Shown here: positions 21,063 through 52,837 of the stretch, piece after piece
How the letters are laid out: every line of letters begins with the position of its first letter
Position numbering within the stretch: position 1 is the first letter of the stretch
Assembly (NCBI GenBank): GCA_023139105.1
Contig: JAGLOF010000016.1
Coordinates: 959-64,958 of the forward strand
Direction: 5' to 3'
Length of the DNA stretch: 64,000 nt
From: a bacterium
GTDB lineage: Bacteria; Zhuqueibacterota; QNDG01; JAGLOF01
The notes under the pieces: generated by a model
Told to the model about the DNA's origin: nothing
Databases searched by the model: none
The model's input: only the letters and a program-made list of their open reading frames with translations
Program-made: the position numbers and the translations under genes

Positions 21063-21842
21063 TCAGCGTACAATCCCACGTTTGGAGTTGTCCATAAACT
21101 GCATAACATTTTCAATAACAGGCGTTATCTCAAGCTCGGAACGGATACGCTGAAATGCCTGGCTTGTATTGAGTTTGGAGCGATAGATGATTCGATATGA
21201 TTGCCGCAGTAAACGTATCTCCGCCTTATCAAAACCACGTCTCTTTAATCCAACGGCATTTAAACCATTATATGCCAGGGGCTCACCTGCAGCCAGAATA
21301 TATGGAGGCACATCCTGTACAACACGGAAACCGCCTCCGATAAATGAGTGCTGACCCACAGTACAAAACTGATGCACAGGTGTGAGACCTCCAATAATCA
21401 CCCAGTCTTCCAAGGTGACATGACCGGCCAGTTGAACGCCATTCGCCAGGATAACTCTATCTCCAACCACACAATCATGTGCAACATGACTGTAGGCCAT
21501 AAGCAGACAATGAGCACCTACACTGGTTTTATTAGTACTGACCGTTCCCCTGTTAAGATCGGCATACTCACGGATGACCGTAAAATCGCCAATCTCCAGT
21601 GTCGTTGGTTCACCTGCATACTTCAAATCCTGTGGAGGCGAACCAATAACAGCGCCGTGATGAATATCGCAGGAGCGGCCGATACGTGCACCATCATCCA
21701 CTAAAACATGTGAATGAATTACAGTATCTTCTGCAATTTTAACATCACCGCGAATTATTGAAAATGCTCCAACACTGACTGAATCAGCAAGTTCTGCTTT
21801 GGGATCTATAATTGCTGTTGGATGAATTTTAGCCAACGGCAA
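21063..21842 (-). CDS. lpxA: acyl-ACP--UDP-GlcNAc O-acyltransferase
   Basis: Hexapeptide repeats followed by an LpxA C-terminal helical domain (GLNAVGLKRRGF). Confidence 0.95.
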   Translation of the reverse strand: MPLAKIHPTAIIDPKAELADSVSVGAFSIIRGDVKIAEDTVIHSHVLVDDGARIGRSCDIHHGAVIGSPPQDLKYAGEPTTLEIGDFTVIREYADLNRGTVSTNKTSVGAHCLLMAYSHVAHDCVVGDRVILANGVQLAGHVTLEDWVIIGGLTPVHQFCTVGQHSFIGGGFRVVQDVPPYILAAGEPLAYNGLNAVGLKRRGFDKAEIRLLRQSYRIIYRSKLNTSQAFQRIRSELEITPVIENVMQFMDNSKRGIVR

Positions 21843-39225: not shown

Positions 39226-40785
39226 ATGACAATTTTCTGGATATGGATAATACTGCTGATAATCGGTTTTACAAGTTACTTCAGCATTCTCAAATTCAGG
39301 CATAAAGCCCATTCTCCTTTCCGTATCAGACTCACTATTTTCTTTCTACTTTTTGTGCTGCTACCCTCTATCCCATCGGCATTTCTAATATCTCAGCTTC
39401 TGACACAGAGTGCTGACATACTTATCATGCCGGGCATGGATGAAGCCCTGGATGCGGGCCTGGACGCCATACGACAGCAAGCGGAGACCAGAGGCAGAAT
39501 CTTCTTACAGGACCATGAAGATTCGGGGCAATGGACAGAGACTACTACAGACATTGCCAATCTACATCTGCTTGGGCATTACAGACTGCATTGCGACTCA
39601 GTCTTGACCATGAAAAATATCTGCCTCCCATCACTTGATCTATGGAAGCCGGCACCAGGTCAGATACAGGCCGCATGTTTTGGACATTACAGCCAAATTA
39701 TAGAAAAAGATCAAAAAGGACGGATAGCCGTTTTTCACTGCCTGGGCGACAGCTCTGTAACAGTGGCCATGTATGATGTAGCCTCACCGGTACTCAAGGC
39801 AAAAAATGAGATGACACGAGCTCTGCGTTTTTATGCATCGCTTTCACTTATCAAGGAATCCATGCTGGAGCAGGAAGTGATCTGGGCACTGGCTGTAGCT
39901 GCTATTTTTATATTGGCTATGACTGCTGCCGGTGCCGCTTCAACTATATCGCGTCATATCAGCCGGCCTGTACAGGATCTGGTTGCAGGCATGAACAAAG
40001 TGGCAGAGGGTGATCTATCCATACGTGTACATACACCTGCAAAAGATGAGTTCAGAAGACTGGTAGATGCCTTCAACCAGATGACGGCTGATCTTGCTGA
40101 GGGCCGCATCAAACTTATAAAAGCAGAAAAACTGGCTGCATGGCAGGGCGTAGCCCGCCAAATCTCTCATGAAATAAAGAATAGCCTTACACCTATTGCC
40201 ATCTCAATCAGGCGGCTCAGAGGACACTTTGGTACAGCGGAAATGCCGCTACGTGTAGCAGACAGCCTTCAGATTATTGAAGAAGAACTTAAATCTATGG
40301 AACTGATGGCCGGAGAGTTCAGTGAATTTGCACGCATGCCCAAGGCCAGTAAAACAGAAATAGAGATCAATATAATTATACAAAAAACCTGTGACTTATT
40401 ACGTTCCGGACTGGACGGACGAAGATTAGATCTTAATCTCGACCCTAACCTTCCCAACATAAAAGCCGACAGCGAACAGATCAAAAGAGTATTAAACAAT
40501 CTTATCAAAAATGCAATAGAAGCCACAAAATCAGGTGACATCATTACAATCAGCAGCACACAATCGATGTTGGCTGATAAAAATATACTTATTGAGATTA
40601 CAGACACAGGCATCGGCATGAACAAAGAGACTCTAATGAGAATCTTTGAACCCTACTTTACAAATAAAAAGCGTGGCACAGGGCTGGGTATGGCAATAGT
40701 ACAGCAGATCATTCAGCAGCATAATGGTCATATTGATCTTAGCTCTCAACCTGGTAGCGGCACTCAATTTCAAATACACCTCTAG
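39226..40785 (+). CDS. sensor histidine kinase (TM-HAMP-HisKA-HATPase), no cognate regulator adjacent
   Basis: HAMP region (RPVQDLVAGMNKVAEGDL), H-box SHEIKNSLTPI, N-box LNNLIKNAIEA and G-box GTGLGMAIV. Confidence 0.85.
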   Translation: MTIFWIWIILLIIGFTSYFSILKFRHKAHSPFRIRLTIFFLLFVLLPSIPSAFLISQLLTQSADILIMPGMDEALDAGLDAIRQQAETRGRIFLQDHEDSGQWTETTTDIANLHLLGHYRLHCDSVLTMKNICLPSLDLWKPAPGQIQAACFGHYSQIIEKDQKGRIAVFHCLGDSSVTVAMYDVASPVLKAKNEMTRALRFYASLSLIKESMLEQEVIWALAVAAIFILAMTAAGAASTISRHISRPVQDLVAGMNKVAEGDLSIRVHTPAKDEFRRLVDAFNQMTADLAEGRIKLIKAEKLAAWQGVARQISHEIKNSLTPIAISIRRLRGHFGTAEMPLRVADSLQIIEEELKSMELMAGEFSEFARMPKASKTEIEINIIIQKTCDLLRSGLDGRRLDLNLDPNLPNIKADSEQIKRVLNNLIKNAIEATKSGDIITISSTQSMLADKNILIEITDTGIGMNKETLMRIFEPYFTNKKRGTGLGMAIVQQIIQQHNGHIDLSSQPGSGTQFQIHL

Positions 40786-40787
40786 CA

Positions 40788-40811
40788 GCCTTAAGTCAGA
40801 CAGACTGCTAG
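40788..40811. repeat. 24-nt exact inverted copy of the left terminus of the 51671..51839 element
   Basis: GCCTTAAGTCAGACAGACTGCTAG is the reverse complement of 51671-51694. It is embedded in the hairpin CTAGCAG-N16-CTGCTAG, which overlaps the kinase stop codon (TAG at 40783-40785). Confidence 0.85.
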
Positions 40812-43994: not shown

Positions 43995-44702
43995 ATGAAC
44001 CCTAAACCCACACCTTTTCTCTTCGGACTATTTTTCATCCTCTTTGGTGGCTTCTTGCTGCTCGGTACTACAGGGATAGTACAAATAGACGAAGAAATTA
44101 CAGTGGCCTCTATTTTTGCAATTGCCGGCCTTGTCATGATTCAAGCACACTTCCTGCAAAAAAAGCCCATATGGATGCTAATTGTCGGAGGCATCAGTCT
44201 ATTTATAGGTACTGCTGTTTTCATTGAAAACACAAGAATAATTCCCGAGGAATCAATAGGTGTTCTCTTATTTGTAATAGCTGCAGCAATATTTCTTTTG
44301 CAACTACGCAAAGGCAAAGAAGCCTGGTGGGCCATTATTCCTGGTGGCTTCTGCCTTGTAATGGCCGGACATGTATTGCTCAGTCTTACTATGTGGCACC
44401 CGGAAGAACTGCATGGAGCACTTTTCTTTGGTGGTATGGGGGCAATATTCGGTATAATTTATTTATTGAAAGATGAAAACTACAATCTAGGCTGGGCAAA
44501 ATGGCCGGCACTTTCCGCATTGATCATGAGTGCTTTTATACTATTTGTTAATAACGACCAAACAATTGGAAAATTATTTTTTCCACTCATATTAATCTTC
44601 TTTGGCGGGATAATTCTGTTTAAATCTATGCATCGTCAACATAATCAAGACATTGACTCCTCTTCTGTATCTACTACTGAAAATGAAGATATAGTTCAGT
44701 AG
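43995..44702 (+). CDS. multi-pass membrane protein of unknown function, last gene of the que transcription unit
   Basis: AAGGAGG lies upstream of the ATG at 43995. There are about 7 hydrophobic segments with recurring FGG/GG motifs, followed by a strong terminator. Confidence 0.6.
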   Translation: MNPKPTPFLFGLFFILFGGFLLLGTTGIVQIDEEITVASIFAIAGLVMIQAHFLQKKPIWMLIVGGISLFIGTAVFIENTRIIPEESIGVLLFVIAAAIFLLQLRKGKEAWWAIIPGGFCLVMAGHVLLSLTMWHPEELHGALFFGGMGAIFGIIYLLKDENYNLGWAKWPALSALIMSAFILFVNNDQTIGKLFFPLILIFFGGIILFKSMHRQHNQDIDSSSVSTTENEDIVQ

Positions 44703-44731
44703 TCAATAATCCATAGACTTTTTTCTTTAAA

Positions 44732-44767
44732 TCCCGGTACTCTAAAATAGAGTGCCGGGATTTTTTT
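44732..44767 (+). terminator. rho-independent terminator
   Basis: TCCCGGTACTCT-AAAAT-AGAGTGCCGGGA (12-bp stem with one G-U pair) followed by T7. Confidence 0.8.
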
Positions 44768-45175
44768 ACTGTTTTTAACACTTTTCAATTGACCTCCGGT
44801 CGGCGTTAAAACTTCAGGAGTGACAAGCTTTATGAAGGTTTGTGTCATCCCTAAAAAACTGTCATCTCCCGTACAGAACCGGGACTCAGCCTGTATGCTC
44901 CTGGCAGGGATCTATCATTCAAAGGTTCACCTGCTAATAACAGTAACGGACTCTATATTTTAAAAATCCTCAATTGTAGACTACTGACAAAGACATTCAT
45001 TTCGTAGCGGCGTATGCCCTTCGCCCACACTACTTGACATTTACAATTACGAGGTGTTCTGTTAAACACAGCATGTTGATGTGGTTTTATTAATCCATAA
45101 AACATCCGGAGGCGCATCGCAAAAGCCTCATCAAACATCAGCGGGAACTGTAGGTTACACGAGTATAGCGCAAGG

Positions 45176-45408
45176 AGATTGCCACGGCACAGAACGCCTC
45201 GCAATGACACATACGGACTTAACGCTCTGCCGGGGAGCCGTTTGTGCAGGCAACAGCGGCAGTCCCATCAAGGCTCCACCAGCATTCATCAATATCTTTC
45301 AGGCAGGGCAGGGCGGCTTCGTGGTCTTCGTGTTCTCTGTGCGAGTGCTCTTTTTCGTTTTTTTCGCTCTTTTCCGTAGGCAATGTTCCTGCTCTTCTTT
45401 CATTTTAA
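45176..45408. repeat. left copy of the ~235-bp direct repeat flanking the ABC island (empty site for the MITE-like element)
   Basis: Colinear with 51574..51968. The first 49 nt differ at 1 position. There are a few small indels and the 169-bp insertion is absent. Confidence 0.9.
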
Positions 45409-45790
45409 ATTTTATATCCGTACGCATCTGTGATAAGCTCTGGCAAAATTTAGTATTTACCCACACGATTCAACAGAGCCTTTATTCTATTAAAATTAGA
45501 ATACCACATAAGAAAGAAACTATCATTGTGAGACTTTTTTTACCGAAGCAATCTTTTAGTCAGGACTTTCGTCCAATATACCCGTTATCAAGATCCCCGA
45601 TAAAAACATTCGAGGATGACAAACTTAGAGACTTACAGCAAACACAATTAATTGTGCAACTCCTCAATTTCAACATAAAATCTTTTTACTTGACATTGAA
45701 ACTTACGATCACTATCTTTCGTACGAATACTGTAAGAACAAACATAAATCGTATATTTTTAACAGTTTCGTCTAATCAGGATATCATTAA

Positions 45791-46369
45791 ATGCCCGAGA
45801 ACAGCAGCAAAGCCCAACAGATTCTTATCACCGCCAAAGATCTCTTCTATCGATACGGCTTCAAACGCGTCTCTATTGAAGAAGTCTGCCGCGAGGCCGG
45901 AGTCAGTAAAATGACATTTTACAAATACTTTAAAAATAAAAATGGGCTGATCATTCATATGATGAATACGTTGAGCAGGGATGCCTGGGAGATTTACGAA
46001 TCCATCATGAGCCGGCAAATTCCCTACAAAGAAAAAGTGGCTGGCATGCTCCGCCTCAAAGCCGACAGCACAAAGGGACTGAGCCCGGAACTGCTTCAGG
46101 AAATCCACAACAGTGATGATGAAGAGCTCAAAGCCTACTTTCAGAAACACACAATAACCAATTTGAAACGCATCATGAAAGACCTGACCAAAGCACAGCA
46201 AGACGGAGAACTCAGGCAAGACATGAAAATTGGATTTATCCTCTACTTCATGAACCACATGTTCGAAATGGCCAAAGACCAACAGCTCACAGCACTCTAT
46301 GCCACACCTCAGGATCTCATCATGGAGCTGAACAATTTCTTTTTTTACGGCATACTGCCCAGGGAATAA
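45791..46369 (+). CDS. TetR/AcrR-family transcriptional regulator
   Basis: HTH region LFYRYGFKRVSIEEVCREAGVSKMTFYKYF. Confidence 0.9.
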   Translation: MPENSSKAQQILITAKDLFYRYGFKRVSIEEVCREAGVSKMTFYKYFKNKNGLIIHMMNTLSRDAWEIYESIMSRQIPYKEKVAGMLRLKADSTKGLSPELLQEIHNSDDEELKAYFQKHTITNLKRIMKDLTKAQQDGELRQDMKIGFILYFMNHMFEMAKDQQLTALYATPQDLIMELNNFFFYGILPRE

Positions 46370-46372
46370 TCC

Positions 46373-47545
46373 ATGAGAATAAAAACGATTGTTATCTTCT
46401 GTACATTATTGGGCACGACGTGCTTACAGGGCCAAAGCGTCCGTTTCAGTGGCCAGGTAGATGCCTGGGGCGGCAGCCGCATCGAGGAGCTGGCATTGCC
46501 TGTGCTAGGATTACGCTATGTCCCTGAATTCTATGTGGAAAAAGCATCGGGCAGCAACTTGATCGATGCGCAAGCGTCATTCAATCTCTTTACCTCTCAT
46601 ATGAATGATGGAAATCAATGGTCAGACGACACGGATGTCAAACTCTATCGGACATGGTTGCGCTACAGCAATGCTCAGAGCGAACTACGTCTCGGGCTAC
46701 AGAAAATCAACTTCGGCTCAGCCAGTCTTATCCGACCGCTGATGTGGTTTGATCGTATTGATCCGAGAGACCCATTGCAGCTCACCGACGGGGTCTGGGG
46801 AATTCTCTATCGTCGATACTTCATAAATAACACCAACTTTTGGCTCTGGGCTCTCTGGGGAAATGAAAAAGTAAAAGGCTGGGAAGCCATCCCCACCCAT
46901 AAAACGACGCCTGAATTCGGCGGACGTATGCAATTCCCTGTACCGAGAGGCGAATTGGCGGCGACCTTTCACCACCGCCGGGCCGATCTGGATGAAGGCA
47001 TCAATGCCATCCGTGAGATGCTGGGTATCCCGCCCCATGCAGAGATCACCTTCGCTCCCCTTGGGCAGATTAATGAGAATCGATTCGGACTGGACGGGAA
47101 GTGGGACTTCACCATTGGATTCTGGGTCGAATCTGCATTCACACACCGGGACATCACACTGCTCCACACGCCATGGCAACGCATGACCGTCATTGGCGCC
47201 GATTACACTTTTGGACTGGGTAACGGCCTCCATGTGATGACCGAACACGCGCGTATTGAAATGAGTGAGGCGGCCTTCTCCAAAGCAGCCGAGGGCTTCG
47301 ATTTCACAGCCCTGTCACTGAATTACCCGCTTGGCCTGCTGGATACTGTCTCAGGCCTGCTCTACCGCGACTGGGACAGCGGCAGCTGGTATCGCTTCAT
47401 CCGCTGGCAGAGAACCTACGACGCCATTCAGCTCCACGCCATGGCGTTCTGGAATCCGGATCGTTTTGCCATGCTTCCGCAGATGGGATCGTCCCCGGCC
47501 ATGGCCGGAAAAGGCTTTCAACTGCTTTTTGTATTCAATCATTAA
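46373..47545 (+). CDS. hypothetical secreted / outer-membrane protein (beta-rich)
   Basis: Signal peptide MRIKTIVIFCTLLGTTCLQGQS and alternating aromatic/polar strands. I recognise no named domain. Confidence 0.5.
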   Translation: MRIKTIVIFCTLLGTTCLQGQSVRFSGQVDAWGGSRIEELALPVLGLRYVPEFYVEKASGSNLIDAQASFNLFTSHMNDGNQWSDDTDVKLYRTWLRYSNAQSELRLGLQKINFGSASLIRPLMWFDRIDPRDPLQLTDGVWGILYRRYFINNTNFWLWALWGNEKVKGWEAIPTHKTTPEFGGRMQFPVPRGELAATFHHRRADLDEGINAIREMLGIPPHAEITFAPLGQINENRFGLDGKWDFTIGFWVESAFTHRDITLLHTPWQRMTVIGADYTFGLGNGLHVMTEHARIEMSEAAFSKAAEGFDFTALSLNYPLGLLDTVSGLLYRDWDSGSWYRFIRWQRTYDAIQLHAMAFWNPDRFAMLPQMGSSPAMAGKGFQLLFVFNH

Positions 47546-47562
47546 CTATAAACGAGGTTGTC

Positions 47563-48261
47563 ATGGACAATAATCACCTCATTACGACTGAAAATCTGAC
47601 GAAGCGCTTTCCCATGGGACAGACAGAACTCACAGCCTTAAACAACATTAATCTGACCATCCGAAAGGGTGAGTTCATAGGTCTTGTAGGTCCGTCGGGA
47701 TCGGGCAAAACGACATTGCTGAATATACTCGGCACGCTGGATTCGCCCACTGAGGGCAGCGCTGTGGTCCTGGGAAATAATACCGCGGAGCTCTCTCACA
47801 AAAACTCAGCCAAATTAAGGAACCTGCAGATCGGATTTATCTTTCAGACTTTCAATCTACTGCCGGTCTATACAGTGTATGAAAATGTGGAATTCCCTTT
47901 ATTGCTTCAAAAACTCGGCAAATCTCAGCGACACGACATGGTCGTGGATGCCTTAAAATGGGTTGGCCTGGCAGATCGAGCCAAATCCAAACCAGCCCAA
48001 CTCTCCGGTGGTCAATGCCAGCGCGTAGCCATTGCCCGGGCCATTGTCAAGAAACCGGCTCTGGTTCTGGCCGATGAGCCCACAGCCAATTTGGACGCCA
48101 AGAATTCCCACCATATCCTTAAAACAATGGAAACGTTGAATAAAGAACTAGGCACTACATTCATCTTTGCCACACATGATGAAAAAGTCATCGGCTATCT
48201 CAAACGTCAGATCACTTTGGATGACGGGCAGATTGCCAATGACCAGGTACTCAAAGGTTAA
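47563..48261 (+). CDS. ABC transporter ATP-binding protein (MacB/LolD-type)
   Basis: Walker A GPSGSGKTT, signature LSGGQCQR and Walker B LVLADEPT. Confidence 0.95.
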   Translation: MDNNHLITTENLTKRFPMGQTELTALNNINLTIRKGEFIGLVGPSGSGKTTLLNILGTLDSPTEGSAVVLGNNTAELSHKNSAKLRNLQIGFIFQTFNLLPVYTVYENVEFPLLLQKLGKSQRHDMVVDALKWVGLADRAKSKPAQLSGGQCQRVAIARAIVKKPALVLADEPTANLDAKNSHHILKTMETLNKELGTTFIFATHDEKVIGYLKRQITLDDGQIANDQVLKG

Positions 48262-48279
48262 GGGGAAGGAGACAATAGC

Positions 48280-49452
48280 ATGTTGGCTTTCAAACTTGCA
48301 TTGCGCAATTTGTTCGGTGCCGGTCTTCGTACCTGGCTGACCGTTATAGTCCTGTCATTCTCCTATGTCATCATCATTTTTCAGCAGGGCATGCTGGACG
48401 GATGGAACAAGCAGGCACGACGGGATATGATGCACTGGGAACTTGGTGGCGGCCAATACTGGCATACCGCTTATGACCCTTATGATTTTTTCACGATTGA
48501 AGATGGCCGCGGCCCATTGGCTCCTGAACTTCAAAGCCGGGTCGATCAAGGGCAAGCCACCGATGTACTGATTTCCCAGGCCTCCATCTACCCCGATGGC
48601 CGGCTGATGAGCGTGCTGCTTAAAGGCATTGATCCTAATCAGACCATCCTGGATATGCCTACCGCACCGCTGGTCGAAAACATCACTGAAATCCCTGCCC
48701 TGATTGGGAGACGTATGGCTGAGGCCGCCAAACTGCGTAAAGGCGATGTGGTCACTGTTCGCTGGCGGGATGCCAACGGCACATTTGATGCCACTGAAAT
48801 CAAGATCGTCGAAGTGATGAAAACCAACGTGGGAAGCATAGATATGGGTCAGCTATGGTTGCCCAAATCCCGCCTTGAATCCATGTTGGGCGTTGAAAAT
48901 ATGACTACCTATCTGGTTTTAAAACGGGGCAGCAATGCAACGGATACAGTGAATGGATGGGTGTATCGTGATCACGCCTATCTCATGAAAGAACTCACCG
49001 AAATGATTAAAATGAAATCGGTGGGCGGCTCCATCATGTTTCTCGTTCTGCTGGCTCTGGCCTGGCTGGCCATCTTTGATACGCAGGTGCTTTCCATATT
49101 CCGGCGACGCAAAGAAATTGGTACAATGATCGCACTGGGAATGACAAGGCAGCGGGTGGTGCGCATCTTCACATTGGAAGGAGCCATGCACGGCATTCTG
49201 GCTGCGGCTGTGGCAGCACTCTACGGCGCGCCTCTCTTCATATGGATGGCCAGATCCGGATGGGCCATGCCCGAAATGACCGATGACATGGGAATGGCTA
49301 TTGCTGAACGCATCTACCCCAGCTACAGCCTGGGACTCATTGCCATGACCACGGCCATTGTGATGCTCTCGGTGATTGTTGTCAGTTTTATCCCGGCGCG
49401 CAACATCACCACGTTCAATCCCACCGACGCCATTAAAGGAAAAACATCATGA
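48280..49452 (+). CDS. ABC transporter permease, FtsX/MacB-type
   Basis: One N-terminal TM segment, a large periplasmic loop and a C-terminal FtsX-like 3-TM bundle. Confidence 0.85.
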   Translation: MLAFKLALRNLFGAGLRTWLTVIVLSFSYVIIIFQQGMLDGWNKQARRDMMHWELGGGQYWHTAYDPYDFFTIEDGRGPLAPELQSRVDQGQATDVLISQASIYPDGRLMSVLLKGIDPNQTILDMPTAPLVENITEIPALIGRRMAEAAKLRKGDVVTVRWRDANGTFDATEIKIVEVMKTNVGSIDMGQLWLPKSRLESMLGVENMTTYLVLKRGSNATDTVNGWVYRDHAYLMKELTEMIKMKSVGGSIMFLVLLALAWLAIFDTQVLSIFRRRKEIGTMIALGMTRQRVVRIFTLEGAMHGILAAAVAALYGAPLFIWMARSGWAMPEMTDDMGMAIAERIYPSYSLGLIAMTTAIVMLSVIVVSFIPARNITTFNPTDAIKGKTS

Positions 49453-50717
49453 TCCGCTTTTTACTCAAAGGACTGGTGCGGGACCGGCACCGCAGCCTGT
49501 TCCCCATATTGGTCGTTTCCATAGGTGTGATGCTGACGGTATTTGCCCATAGCTGGTTCAGCGGCATGATCAATGACATTATTGATTCCAATGCCAAGTT
49601 CGACACCGGGCACATCAAGATCATGAGTCGAAGCTATGCGGAGAATAAAGACCAGACGCCTAATGACCTGGCCCTGACCGGGATTAATGATCTGCTTCAG
49701 CAGTTGAGAGACGACATCCCGGAGATGGCCTGGACTCCCCGTATTAAATTCGGTGGCTTGATCGACATTCCCGATGAGGCAGGTGAAACCCGCTCTCAAT
49801 CACCAGCCATGGGTGTTGCTTTGGATTTTTACGGTCCCGGCGGTGAAGTCGAACGACTCAACATACAAAATGCCTTGGTCACAGGACGCCTCCCCCGGAA
49901 TCCCGGTGAGATTCTCATCAGTGACGAGCTGGCCCAGCGCCTGGAGACCAAGGTCGGCGATACGGCTACATTGATTGGGTCCACCATGTACGGTGCCATG
50001 GCTGTGCACAACTTCACAATCTCAGGAACGTTGAAATTCGGCATGAAGGCCATGGACCGCGGCGCCATGCTGGTCGATATTCATGACATACGACTGGCAT
50101 TGGATATGGATGATGCTGCCGGAGAGATTGTGGGCTATATGCACCCTATCTATAAAGATAACACCATACAGTCCATCAAGGCTGAATTCAATAGCCTTCA
50201 TACTGAGAACGATGACGAATTTGCACCCGTCATGCTCTCACTCCGTGATCAAAATGGATTGAACGACTATCTGGTGTATGCCGAGTCCATCTCCGGAATG
50301 CTAATCTTTGTTTTTGTCGGCATCATGTCTCTGGTGCTATGGAATACCGGCCTGATTGGTGGAATTCGGCGCTACGGTGAAATTGGTGTCCGCCTCGCCA
50401 TTGGTGAAAACAAAGGGGGCGTTTATCGCTCCATGGTGCTGGAATCTGCGGCCATCGGCTTTGCCGGTTCACTGATTGGCTCCATTCTTGGACTGGCCCT
50501 GGCCTATTGGATTCAGGTTAAAGGAATTAATTTGGGTGATATGATGGGCAACAGCTCACTACTGATCTCCAATATTGTCCGCACCCGCATCACCGAACAA
50601 ACCTACTATATTGGATTTATTCCCGGCCTGCTCTCCACGGTGCTGGGTTCCATGCTGGCCGGTATTGGAATCTATAAACGCCAGACCGCCCAGCTCTTTA
50701 AAGAATTAGAAGTTTGA
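49449..50717 (+). CDS. ABC transporter permease, FtsX/MacB-type (second)
   Basis: Same architecture as 48280..49452, with a 4-nt overlap with the upstream gene. Confidence 0.85.
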   Translation: MIRFLLKGLVRDRHRSLFPILVVSIGVMLTVFAHSWFSGMINDIIDSNAKFDTGHIKIMSRSYAENKDQTPNDLALTGINDLLQQLRDDIPEMAWTPRIKFGGLIDIPDEAGETRSQSPAMGVALDFYGPGGEVERLNIQNALVTGRLPRNPGEILISDELAQRLETKVGDTATLIGSTMYGAMAVHNFTISGTLKFGMKAMDRGAMLVDIHDIRLALDMDDAAGEIVGYMHPIYKDNTIQSIKAEFNSLHTENDDEFAPVMLSLRDQNGLNDYLVYAESISGMLIFVFVGIMSLVLWNTGLIGGIRRYGEIGVRLAIGENKGGVYRSMVLESAAIGFAGSLIGSILGLALAYWIQVKGINLGDMMGNSSLLISNIVRTRITEQTYYIGFIPGLLSTVLGSMLAGIGIYKRQTAQLFKELEV

Positions 50718-51463
50718 TGGAGGACGCCATGCGCGCACGTTTATTCATAATCTGTTTTCTCCTGGCTATGCCGATTGCCATACTGGCCCAGAACGGCAAT
50801 GAAATACTGAAACGGGTCGATGAGAACATGGGGGCCGAGTCCCGCATCCATGAATCGACCATGATCATACACGGAAGGCGGGGCACACGCACAGTCACAT
50901 CCAGGTCGTGGATTATCGGGATCGACAAATCCTTTACCGAATTCCTCTCACCGGCAAGGGAGCGCGGCACTAAGATGCTGAAGCTGGAGGATGAGCTTTG
51001 GACATACTCCCCCTCGACAGACCGTACGATTCGCATTGCCGGCCACATGCTGCGTCAGTCCGTCATGGGCTCAGACCTCTCCTACGAAGACGCCATGGAG
51101 GATCCGCATCTGCCTAATATCTACACAGCTGAAAAGGATGGTGAGGAGACCATACTCGAACGCAACTGCTGGATACTGAAGCTCACGGCTACAAAAAACG
51201 ACGTGGCCTATCACTCTCGCCGTCTCTGGGTGGACAAGACGCGTTATCTCGTACTGAAGGAAGAACGATTTGCAAAAAGCGGCAAACTGCTGAAAACAGC
51301 CGAAGTGAAAGCCGTCAAACGCATGGACAATCGCTGGGTGGCCACGCACATGGTGTTCAGAGACATGCTCAAGAAAGGCAAAGGAACCGAATTCAAACTC
51401 AACAAGGTAACATTCAATGCCAACATCCCTGCCCACCGCTTCTCCAAGGCTGCATTACGCTAA
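50714..51463 (+). CDS. LolA-like outer-membrane lipoprotein-sorting protein
   Basis: Signal peptide ..AMPIAILAQ, then ILKRVDEN......S.M.IH..RG.R and WTYSPS..R..RI. The start is uncertain (50714 TTG, 50717 ATG or 50732 ATG). Confidence 0.75.
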   Translation: MMEDAMRARLFIICFLLAMPIAILAQNGNEILKRVDENMGAESRIHESTMIIHGRRGTRTVTSRSWIIGIDKSFTEFLSPARERGTKMLKLEDELWTYSPSTDRTIRIAGHMLRQSVMGSDLSYEDAMEDPHLPNIYTAEKDGEETILERNCWILKLTATKNDVAYHSRRLWVDKTRYLVLKEERFAKSGKLLKTAEVKAVKRMDNRWVATHMVFRDMLKKGKGTEFKLNKVTFNANIPAHRFSKAALR

Positions 51464-51573
51464 ATAACTCTACAAGGGCATGCAGGAGTGACATAGAAAC
51501 CACAAAGTGATTTTGCCGGAGTAATCTATTCTGCGATAATCCGTATCATCTACGGGGCAGATCTCCACAAAGA

Positions 51574-51968
51574 AGATTGCCACGGCACAAAACGCCTCGC
51601 AATGACACATACGGACTTAACGTTGTCTCTGCCAGGGAAGCATTTGTGCAGGCGTCCCATCAAGGCTCCACTAGCAGTCTGTCTGACTTAAGGCTATTAG
51701 GCATGTTTTTAGAGATTTTTTTCCTATTCAAGGCGCGATTGAGGCGCATAAAGAGCTTTATGTAACGAGTGAGCAACGCAGAATAGGGGAAAAAGATCAA
51801 AAACAGGACAATATTGGCGTAAGTCCGACAGGCTGCTGGCATTCATCAATATCTTTCAGGCAGGGCAGGGCGGCTTCGTGGTCTTTGTGATCTCTGTGCG
51901 AGTGCTCTTTTTTTTATTTTTTCCGCTCTTTTTCGTAGGCAAATGTTCCTGCTCTTCTTTCATTTTAT
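51574..51968. repeat. right copy of the ~235-bp direct repeat (interrupted by the 169-bp insertion)
   Basis: Colinear with 45176..45408. Confidence 0.9.
51671..51839. mobile_element. MITE-like 169-bp insertion with 24-nt imperfect terminal inverted repeats
   Basis: CTAGCAGTCTGTCTGACTTAAGGC (51671-51694) against the reverse complement of 51816-51839 (CCAGCAGCCTGTCGGACTTACGCC) matches at 19/24. The element is absent from the paralogous site at ~45270. Confidence 0.55.
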
Positions 51969-52288
51969 AAAAATTTGGGTGTCCCTGTGTCGAAAACAGG
52001 GAAAAACTGTCATCCCTGCATGCTCCTGGCAGGGATCCATCATTTAAAGGCGCACATGTATTAACAGCAGCAGAATCTACATTTTTAATCCTCGCTATTG
52101 TAGACTCCTGACAAGGGCACTCAGGAGTGACATGCTTTTAAGGTTTATGTCATCCGTGTTCAATTTCTTTTCTATTAATCTCATTAATACATTAAATCCG
52201 GATTGCTTTTCAGGCTAAATTTTCGTAAAATGTAAGTTAATCTTCACGTCTTCAGAAAAAGGCACTTATCTGACGGAAAACTATTTTA

Positions 52289-52837
52289 ATGCCAAGATCA
52301 AGAAGTTGGACTCTCATCCCTTTATTTGCAGCTTTAACGGCTGTCGGCGGTTTCATTAGAATACCTGTACAACCGGCAGCATTTACCCTGCAGACACTCT
52401 TTGTCTATCTTGCAGGCTCCATGCTGCCTGCCAGATCAGCAGCAATGAGTCAAATATTATTTTTAGCCATAGGTCTGGCTGGTCTACCCATTTTTGCAGC
52501 GGGGGGCGGGCCCGGTTATATACTCCAGCCCACATTCGGATATTTACTGTCATTCCCCATTGCAGCATGGATAATTGCAAAATTCAGCGGACGCGTCCGG
52601 TACTGGCAATCCTGGATTACCGGTGTGATTCTGGCACTTGTATGCATTTTCAGCATAGGCGTATGTGGGATGTATTTCAACTTTGCACACATTGCCGGAA
52701 AACCGATACTCTTGAAACATGCCATCTGGAGCGGAGCCATTCTTTTTATTCCGGCTGAAATAGCTAAAATTACTCTGGCAGCAATAGTATTGAAACGCTG
52801 GCGGCTCTCAAATCCCGGAGAAGAGTTTAATGCCTAA
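52289..52837 (+). CDS. bioY: biotin transporter BioY
   Basis: The typical BioY pattern ..TAVGGFIRIP..P..FTLQTLFV.LAG... with 5-6 TM segments. Confidence 0.85.
   Translation: MPRSRSWTLIPLFAALTAVGGFIRIPVQPAAFTLQTLFVYLAGSMLPARSAAMSQILFLAIGLAGLPIFAAGGGPGYILQPTFGYLLSFPIAAWIIAKFSGRVRYWQSWITGVILALVCIFSIGVCGMYFNFAHIAGKPILLKHAIWSGAILFIPAEIAKITLAAIVLKRWRLSNPGEEFNA

Follow-up and report, generated by a model that had tools for sequence, protein, structure and literature searches.

The Correia elements of Neisseria, ERIC and RUP are multicopy intergenic MITEs of about 100 to 170 bp, quasi-palindromic in structure and inserted at short palindromic targets. In the IS1182 family, ISPse1 from Paracoccus seriniphilus, which was captured by functional transposition, is 1653 bp long, with inverted repeats that agree at 16/16 positions and a direct repeat (DR) of 4 bp (PMC3281130). 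In Methanosarcina acetivorans, ISMac2 (IS1182) has given rise to MITEs of 160 bp (14 copies, DR of 4 bp) and 169 bp (7 copies) (PMC3852290). The locus we describe here lies in a 64,000-nucleotide stretch of a bacterial genome, hereafter the window, and its positions 51675-51835 are very probably a MITE with the ends of the ISAzo1-like group of the IS1182 family. This MITE is a new family within an already described kind, the IS1182-derived MITEs of the same size and duplication.

The host genome is a metagenome-assembled genome (MAG) of 5.29 Mb in 223 contigs, with 41% GC and 87% completeness. A sequence-only reading of the window had proposed a MITE-like insertion of 169 bp, and this insertion is real, positions 51671-51839 being made up of a 4-bp flank, a 161-bp element and a second 4-bp flank. 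The filled site (51664-51847) reads GGCTCCA, CTAG, CAGTCTGTCTGACTTAAGG...CGTAAGTCCGACAGGCTG, CTGG, CATTCATC; the left copy of the target-site duplication is CTAG (51671-51674) and the right copy is CTGG (51836-51839), one change away from CTAG. The body of the element is a quasi-palindrome on the forward strand that opens with CAG and closes with CTG. The 16-nt family terminus is CAGYCTGTCGGACTTA, and its two representatives in the window are the left TIR core CAGTCTGTCTGACTTA (51675-51690, forward strand), which has T at position 10 where full-length IS1182-family elements have G, and the right TIR core CAGCCTGTCGGACTTA (51820-51835, minus-strand reading), which agrees with the full-length IS1182-family ends. 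The TIR cores match at 15/16 positions in the family consensus and at 14/16 in the window copy, and the terminus CAGYCTGTCKGACTTA has three occurrences in the window, where the expected number is 0.00. The terminal inverted repeat of 19/24 that had been read by eye was reproduced with CTAG/CCAG included and becomes 18/24 when counted from CAG. At 161 bp the element falls below the ~500 bp expected of a MITE and has no transposase gene. The earlier judgment that it holds no convincing ORF also stood: copies of the element differ by 1- and 2-nt indels that break its only ORFs of 60 aa, and the short ORFs are thus not conserved.

The arms of the MITE are imperfectly complementary over ~59 nt (76%), and folding, which the sequence-only reading had suggested as a check, brought the whole 161-bp unit into a single long hairpin (z = -6.5 as DNA and -7.3 as RNA) whose stability was reached by 0 of 200 shuffled controls. 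We considered that the hairpin, beyond its transposon origin, might also work as an RNA-level signal in the interval from the LolA-like gene to bioY, a role reported for Correia and ERIC elements; it might stabilise the transcript, offer a site to RNase III or attenuate transcription. The RNA fold is indeed very stable (-66.7 kcal/mol), the window MITE is intergenic between these two co-directional genes, and several copies of the family lie directly after stop codons. Against such a role, Rfam returned no match at E <= 1 across window positions 44500-52500, a scan for promoter-like and terminator-like sites found none inside the MITE and no T-run past the stem, and the full copies, all of them intergenic, occur in both orientations beside unrelated genes. 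We therefore regard recruitment as an RNA signal as improbable.

A BLAST search of the MAG recovered 11 full-length copies on 11 contigs, together with at least 7 further copies truncated where contigs end, several shorter fragments and two relics of 22 bp, so that the copy count proposed as a check on the MITE reading came out in its favor. The full copies share 88.8 to 99.4% pairwise identity (mean, 94.6%), with core copies at 97 to 99%, and their consensus reads CTAG, CAGTCTGTCGGACTTAAGGCTATTAGG ... GACGTAAGTCCGACAGGCTG, CTAG. The probable source run is a cold-seep metagenome; its contigs fork precisely at 51670-51674 and 51835-51837, and the unitig internal to the MITE has a depth of 139.5 compared with 14 for the unique flanks, a ratio of about 10. 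The MITE family accounts for part of the fragmentation of the MAG assembly. With other flanks, the family is also present in sediment and hydrothermal-vent metagenomes; it was found in none of the 40 nearest relatives. A scan of 167 species genomes of the phylum (100 genera) for the exact terminus gave 19 matches in this genome and 0 in the other 166, and the reversed-sequence control for the scan gave 0 to 1 matches. In a sister sample from the cold seep (run X8), a 1,623-nt contig of depth 12 ends in the right terminus of the MITE; its last ~38 nt are the right end of the element (window positions 51797-51834), and the adjoining 30 nt are absent from the MAG. This contig could represent the missing partner IS or a truncated MITE copy.

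The sequence-only reading had left the target-site duplication to be defined from multiple insertions, and these define it as CTAG, 4 bp. Flanking 4-mers in the MAG are CTAG on both sides in 5/11 full copies, CTAA on both sides in one copy (on contig C13) and CAAG on both sides in another (C196), with the remaining 4/11 differing between their flanks at one or more positions; CTAG-type 4-mers are present on both sides in 11/11. CTAG is a rare target in this genome, with 1981 sites, or 0.10 times the number expected from base composition and 0.33 times the Markov expectation, and it is strongly avoided, having the lowest value of all 16 palindromic tetranucleotides in the MAG. Three of the 11 full copies, in addition to a relic in the window, lie on the TAG stop codon of a gene, and duplication of CTAG keeps the overlapped stop codons intact.

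The link to a named IS group comes from public scans of species-representative genomes and of metagenome contigs with TAGCAGYCTGTCGGACTTA, which returned at least 120 loci in each of the two collections, compared with ~9 expected by chance according to our own estimate. Among the matches listed, the hosts include Alpha-, Beta- and Gammaproteobacteria, Verrucomicrobiota, Kiritimatiellota (Pontiella), Lentisphaerota and Desulfobacterota, and the matches are often at contig ends. Pairing of inverted termini, again among the matches listed, gave 22 elements of 1481 to 1741 bp with one long ORF each, and ~75 MITE-sized pairs of 68 to 362 bp. All 12 transposases tested from the full-length elements scored 312 to 368 bits on NCBIfam model NF033551 (IS1182 family transposase), for which the cut-off is 270 bits, and their Pfam domains are DUF772, DDE_Tnp_1 and DDE_Tnp_1_6. 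Compared with these full-length elements, the right end of the window MITE matches at 16/16 positions and the left end at all but position 10. CTAG is found on both flanks in 80 of 98 distinct elements among the matches listed, a count in which one end was fixed by the search pattern and only the other end is independent evidence. A 1545-bp copy on plasmid 2 of Aromatoleum aromaticum EbN1, which reads CTAG, CAGCGTGTCGGACT...AGTCCGACACGCTG, CTAG, is annotated as "IS1182-like element ISAzo1 family transposase." MITE-sized elements with the same 16-nt terminus (loci L019 to L258) measure ~103, 117, 122, 137, 145, 160, 192, 203 and 227 bp and reside in Proteobacteria, Verrucomicrobiota and others, and the ~160-bp MITEs from other phyla share no interior with the window MITE. 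Because these elements come in many lengths, with interiors unrelated to that of the window MITE, we conclude that the ISAzo1-like group repeatedly spawns MITEs.

A transposase of the IS630/Tc1-mariner type could also be proposed to mobilize the element, in which case only the central TA would be duplicated and the element itself would be GCAG...CTGC. Transposases of this type likewise prefer CTAG and duplicate only its central TA, the CTAG flanks fit a TA duplication equally well, and the end of contig C11 holds the one IS630-like DDE_3 transposase gene of the MAG. We nevertheless find this explanation very unlikely, since the MITE termini match those of the 22 full-length elements, whose tested transposases are all of the IS1182 family and not DDE_3, terminus-like sequence is absent near the DDE_3 gene on C11, and the copy with CTAA on both sides is more simply accounted for by a 4-bp duplication than by TA. 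On the basis of that CTAA/CTAA copy and of the IS1182 family literature, we favor a 4-bp duplication of CTAG over one of the TA inside it, two outcomes that sequence alone cannot formally separate.

The insertion site itself lies in a dispersed repeat, Rep-B, of which the window contains an uninterrupted copy (45170-45410, forward strand), with modules of about 25 to 30 and 40 to 65 copies per genome, and the copy interrupted by the MITE (51570-51970, forward strand). The right-hand repeat reads ATCAAGGCTCCA, CTAG, CAGTCTGTCTGACTTAAGGC...GCGTAAGTCCGACAGGCTG, CTGG, CATTCATCAATATC, and the left-hand repeat reads ATCAAGGCTCCA, CCAG, CATTCATCAATATC. An empty site in the left copy had been placed at ~45268-45274; such a site does exist, although the true 4-mer, CCAG, is found a few bases to the right at 45279-45282, in the context GGCTCCA, CCAG, CATTCATC (45272-45290). 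When the flanks of the window insertion are joined through a single 4-mer they align without gaps to over 20 paralogues within the host-repeat family, and the joined flanks of the MITE insertion on contig C173 align in the same way to two paralogues. The host-repeat consensus at the insertion site is CCAG, and one copy (C169) has CTAG; the simplest history for the window is that the MITE inserted into a repeat with the CTAG variant, after which the right-hand CTAG underwent a single change from A to G. The MITE-bearing Rep-B lacks 10 bp (AACAGCGGCA) at 51653/51654, ~20 nt upstream of the insertion site, that nearly all other Rep-B copies have kept.

Rep-B belongs to an intergenic mosaic whose repeat modules, six or more in number, have ~8 to 65 copies each and stand in varying order, with many copies at contig ends. 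Positions 44790-45480 and 51470-52130 are intergenic and consist almost wholly of this mosaic, whose summed depth reaches ~2,000 to 2,600 in the source run, compared with 14 for unique flanks, and gave no Rfam match. The description of filled and empty sites in otherwise colinear flanks therefore needs qualification: the element is absent from the left copy and the repeat is present on both sides, but each flank belongs to a dispersed repeat family that has dozens of members and is not private to the locus, so that the sites are paralogous and not one locus in two states. A search of public runs for an allelic empty site yielded only paralogous joints (Logan contigs break at repeats). The dispersed nature of the repeat also corrects the view that private direct repeats bracket the ABC-exporter module. 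A shared block, ACGGACTTAACG (45213 and 51611), had been taken as a possible older solo end of the element; this suggestion is not supported, as the block is a conserved internal stretch of the host repeat, which fits only the inner 8 to 9 nt of the terminus and matches the outer 8 nt at 2/8 positions, the level of chance. We ruled out Rep-B as a small-protein gene, its indels not being multiples of three, which makes it noncoding. It was likewise ruled out as a conserved promoter of paralogous operons, since the genes downstream of its copies are unrelated (a tetR gene with a MacB/FtsX ABC exporter operon and the LolA-like gene in one case, and bioY in the other).

The claim that no transposition took place, and that the left copy suffered a deletion or that the 161-bp unit is a recombination-shuffled module of the mosaic repeat, can draw on the variable order of the surrounding modules but is almost certainly wrong, as the 10 other full copies have precise, identical ends and CTAG-type flanks in surroundings that are unrelated and for the most part unique, the more than 20 host-repeat copies without the unit have a single 4-mer at the site, and the source-run contigs branch exactly at the MITE termini, all in keeping with the insertion that the sequence-only reading had preferred to a left-copy deletion.

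The search for an autonomous partner led to a family, the ISAzo1-like group of IS1182, but only in other organisms. No IS1182-family transposase in the MAG exceeds the cut-off, the best match scoring 101.7 bits against 270, and a tblastn search of the MAG gave ~30% identity in the N-terminal domain only. Genes beside solo or odd termini in the MAG are ordinary ones, with no transposase among them, and no match to the MITE interior was found in any full-length IS that we fetched. The resident ISs, at five DDE_Tnp_1 loci and one DDE_3 locus, were rejected as partners because their ends, such as ACCCGTTGTG, GCCCCATAAGCG and AGGGGCTGTATC, are unrelated to those of the MITE. IS1182-family elements above the cut-off are encoded in 23 genomes of the phylum, and these native elements were also rejected as a source, their ends (GAGACTGTCGAAAAAC, GGGGCTGTATCAAAAG, CAGACTGTGTGAAAA and CAGGCTGTCGATTTAA) not being of the MITE type. 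Given that the MAG is 87% complete and divided among 223 contigs, assembly or binning could have left the partner out.

The 101.7-bit match is borne by a separate 954-bp, internally deleted IS1182-like element (C134:1003-1956) that keeps only N- and C-terminal fragments of the transposase. Its ends, AGGGGCTGTATCAAAAGC, match full-length IS1182 elements of three genomes of the phylum (G084, G083 and G006), and it is a second, unrelated non-autonomous derivative of IS1182.

We propose that an IS1182-family DDE transposase, acting in trans, would bind both termini of the MITE, excise or copy the element and integrate it at CTAG, where a cut with a 4-nt stagger would leave CTAG duplicated. The complementarity of the arms over ~59 nt suggests that the MITE was born by fold-back duplication of one IS end and not by simple internal deletion. 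Because the core copies are so alike, amplification in this lineage was likely fairly recent, and the MITE is now probably stranded, as the assembly contains no matching transposase. Horizontal entry of an ISAzo1-like element, or of the MITE itself, followed by amplification and then by loss of the partner or its absence from the assembly, is the most economical reading.

Copies of the MITE potentially also decay in place. The relic in the window (40782-40811, minus strand) is CTAG, 22 bp of CAGTCTGTCTGACTTAAGGCTG (40786-40807) and CTAG, and the TAG within its first CTAG is the stop codon of a 519-aa ORF that lies upstream. A second relic, on contig C48 (about 21389-21414), has a junction identical to that of the window relic, and both 22-bp sequences read CAG(T/C)CTGTC(T/G)GACTTAAGGCTG, each between CTAG-type 4-mers. 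AGGCT repeats are present near both ends of the full MITE and the relic junction fits a deletion between them, consistent with relics that would be left once the DNA between the AGGCT microhomologies, at the hairpin base, has been deleted. At C167:2961-3060, a terminus-like end that has diverged (CCAG, CCGACTGTAGGACTTAAGACTAATAGG) stands ~20 nt away from a host-repeat fragment in inverted orientation, and hints at an older or variant subfamily tied to the same repeat.

A 6.7-kb segment of contig C220 (C220:12896-19647, or L276:2397-9148) lies between two outward-facing MITE termini, both of the right-end type and inverted relative to each other, with flanks of CTAG and CTGG, as a single transposition event would give. 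The segment adjoins efp-accB-accC and encodes a 1277-aa T9SS-secreted beta-helix protein, a PorV-like protein and a 245-aa protein of unknown function, and in a synteny comparison with six relatives matches were confined to the generic T9SS sorting domain. The segment might form a cargo unit with MITE ends as its borders; alternatively, the two ends might be unrelated fragments. That ends of this family mobilize ordinary genes, with the C220 segment as a case, is an unlikely proposition, although if true it would make the segment a transposase-less cargo transposon built from MITE ends, with a terminus apparently imported from another phylum. Integron mobilization units and composite transposons flanked by MITEAba12 are known MITE-bounded units with which it can be compared. 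Unlike them, the C220 segment, a candidate mobile unit at most, has single truncated right-type ends and not two complete MITEs.

The MITE opens no new mechanism. What it provides is a new family in an uncultured cold-seep bacterium that is tied firmly to a named IS group, and an instance of one 16-nt terminus that is common to elements of many phyla and to MITE-sized derivatives of many lengths. Its interest is modest and lies in a terminus that recurs across phyla, an apparently missing partner, a very rare CTAG target that overlaps stop codons and the nesting of the element in another repeat.

The window MITE shares with the ISAzo1-like group the terminal motif CAG(C/T)(C/G)TGTCGGACT and CTAG on both flanks, and differs in that members of that group are full-length and carry a transposase, while the MITE is 161 bp long without one and has an interior unrelated to those of the fetched IS. 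The MITEs of M. acetivorans are alike by description, being of the IS1182 family and of nearly equal length, with inverted repeats of ~25 nt, a 4-bp DR and a similar copy number, but they reside in an archaeal host together with the partner IS, whereas the host here is a bacterium in which no partner was detected. With Correia, ERIC and RUP the window MITE has in common the size class, the hairpin, the intergenic multicopy state and a short palindromic target; it shows no sign of promoter, IHF-site or RNase III functions and is set apart from them by other termini and a different inferred transposase family.
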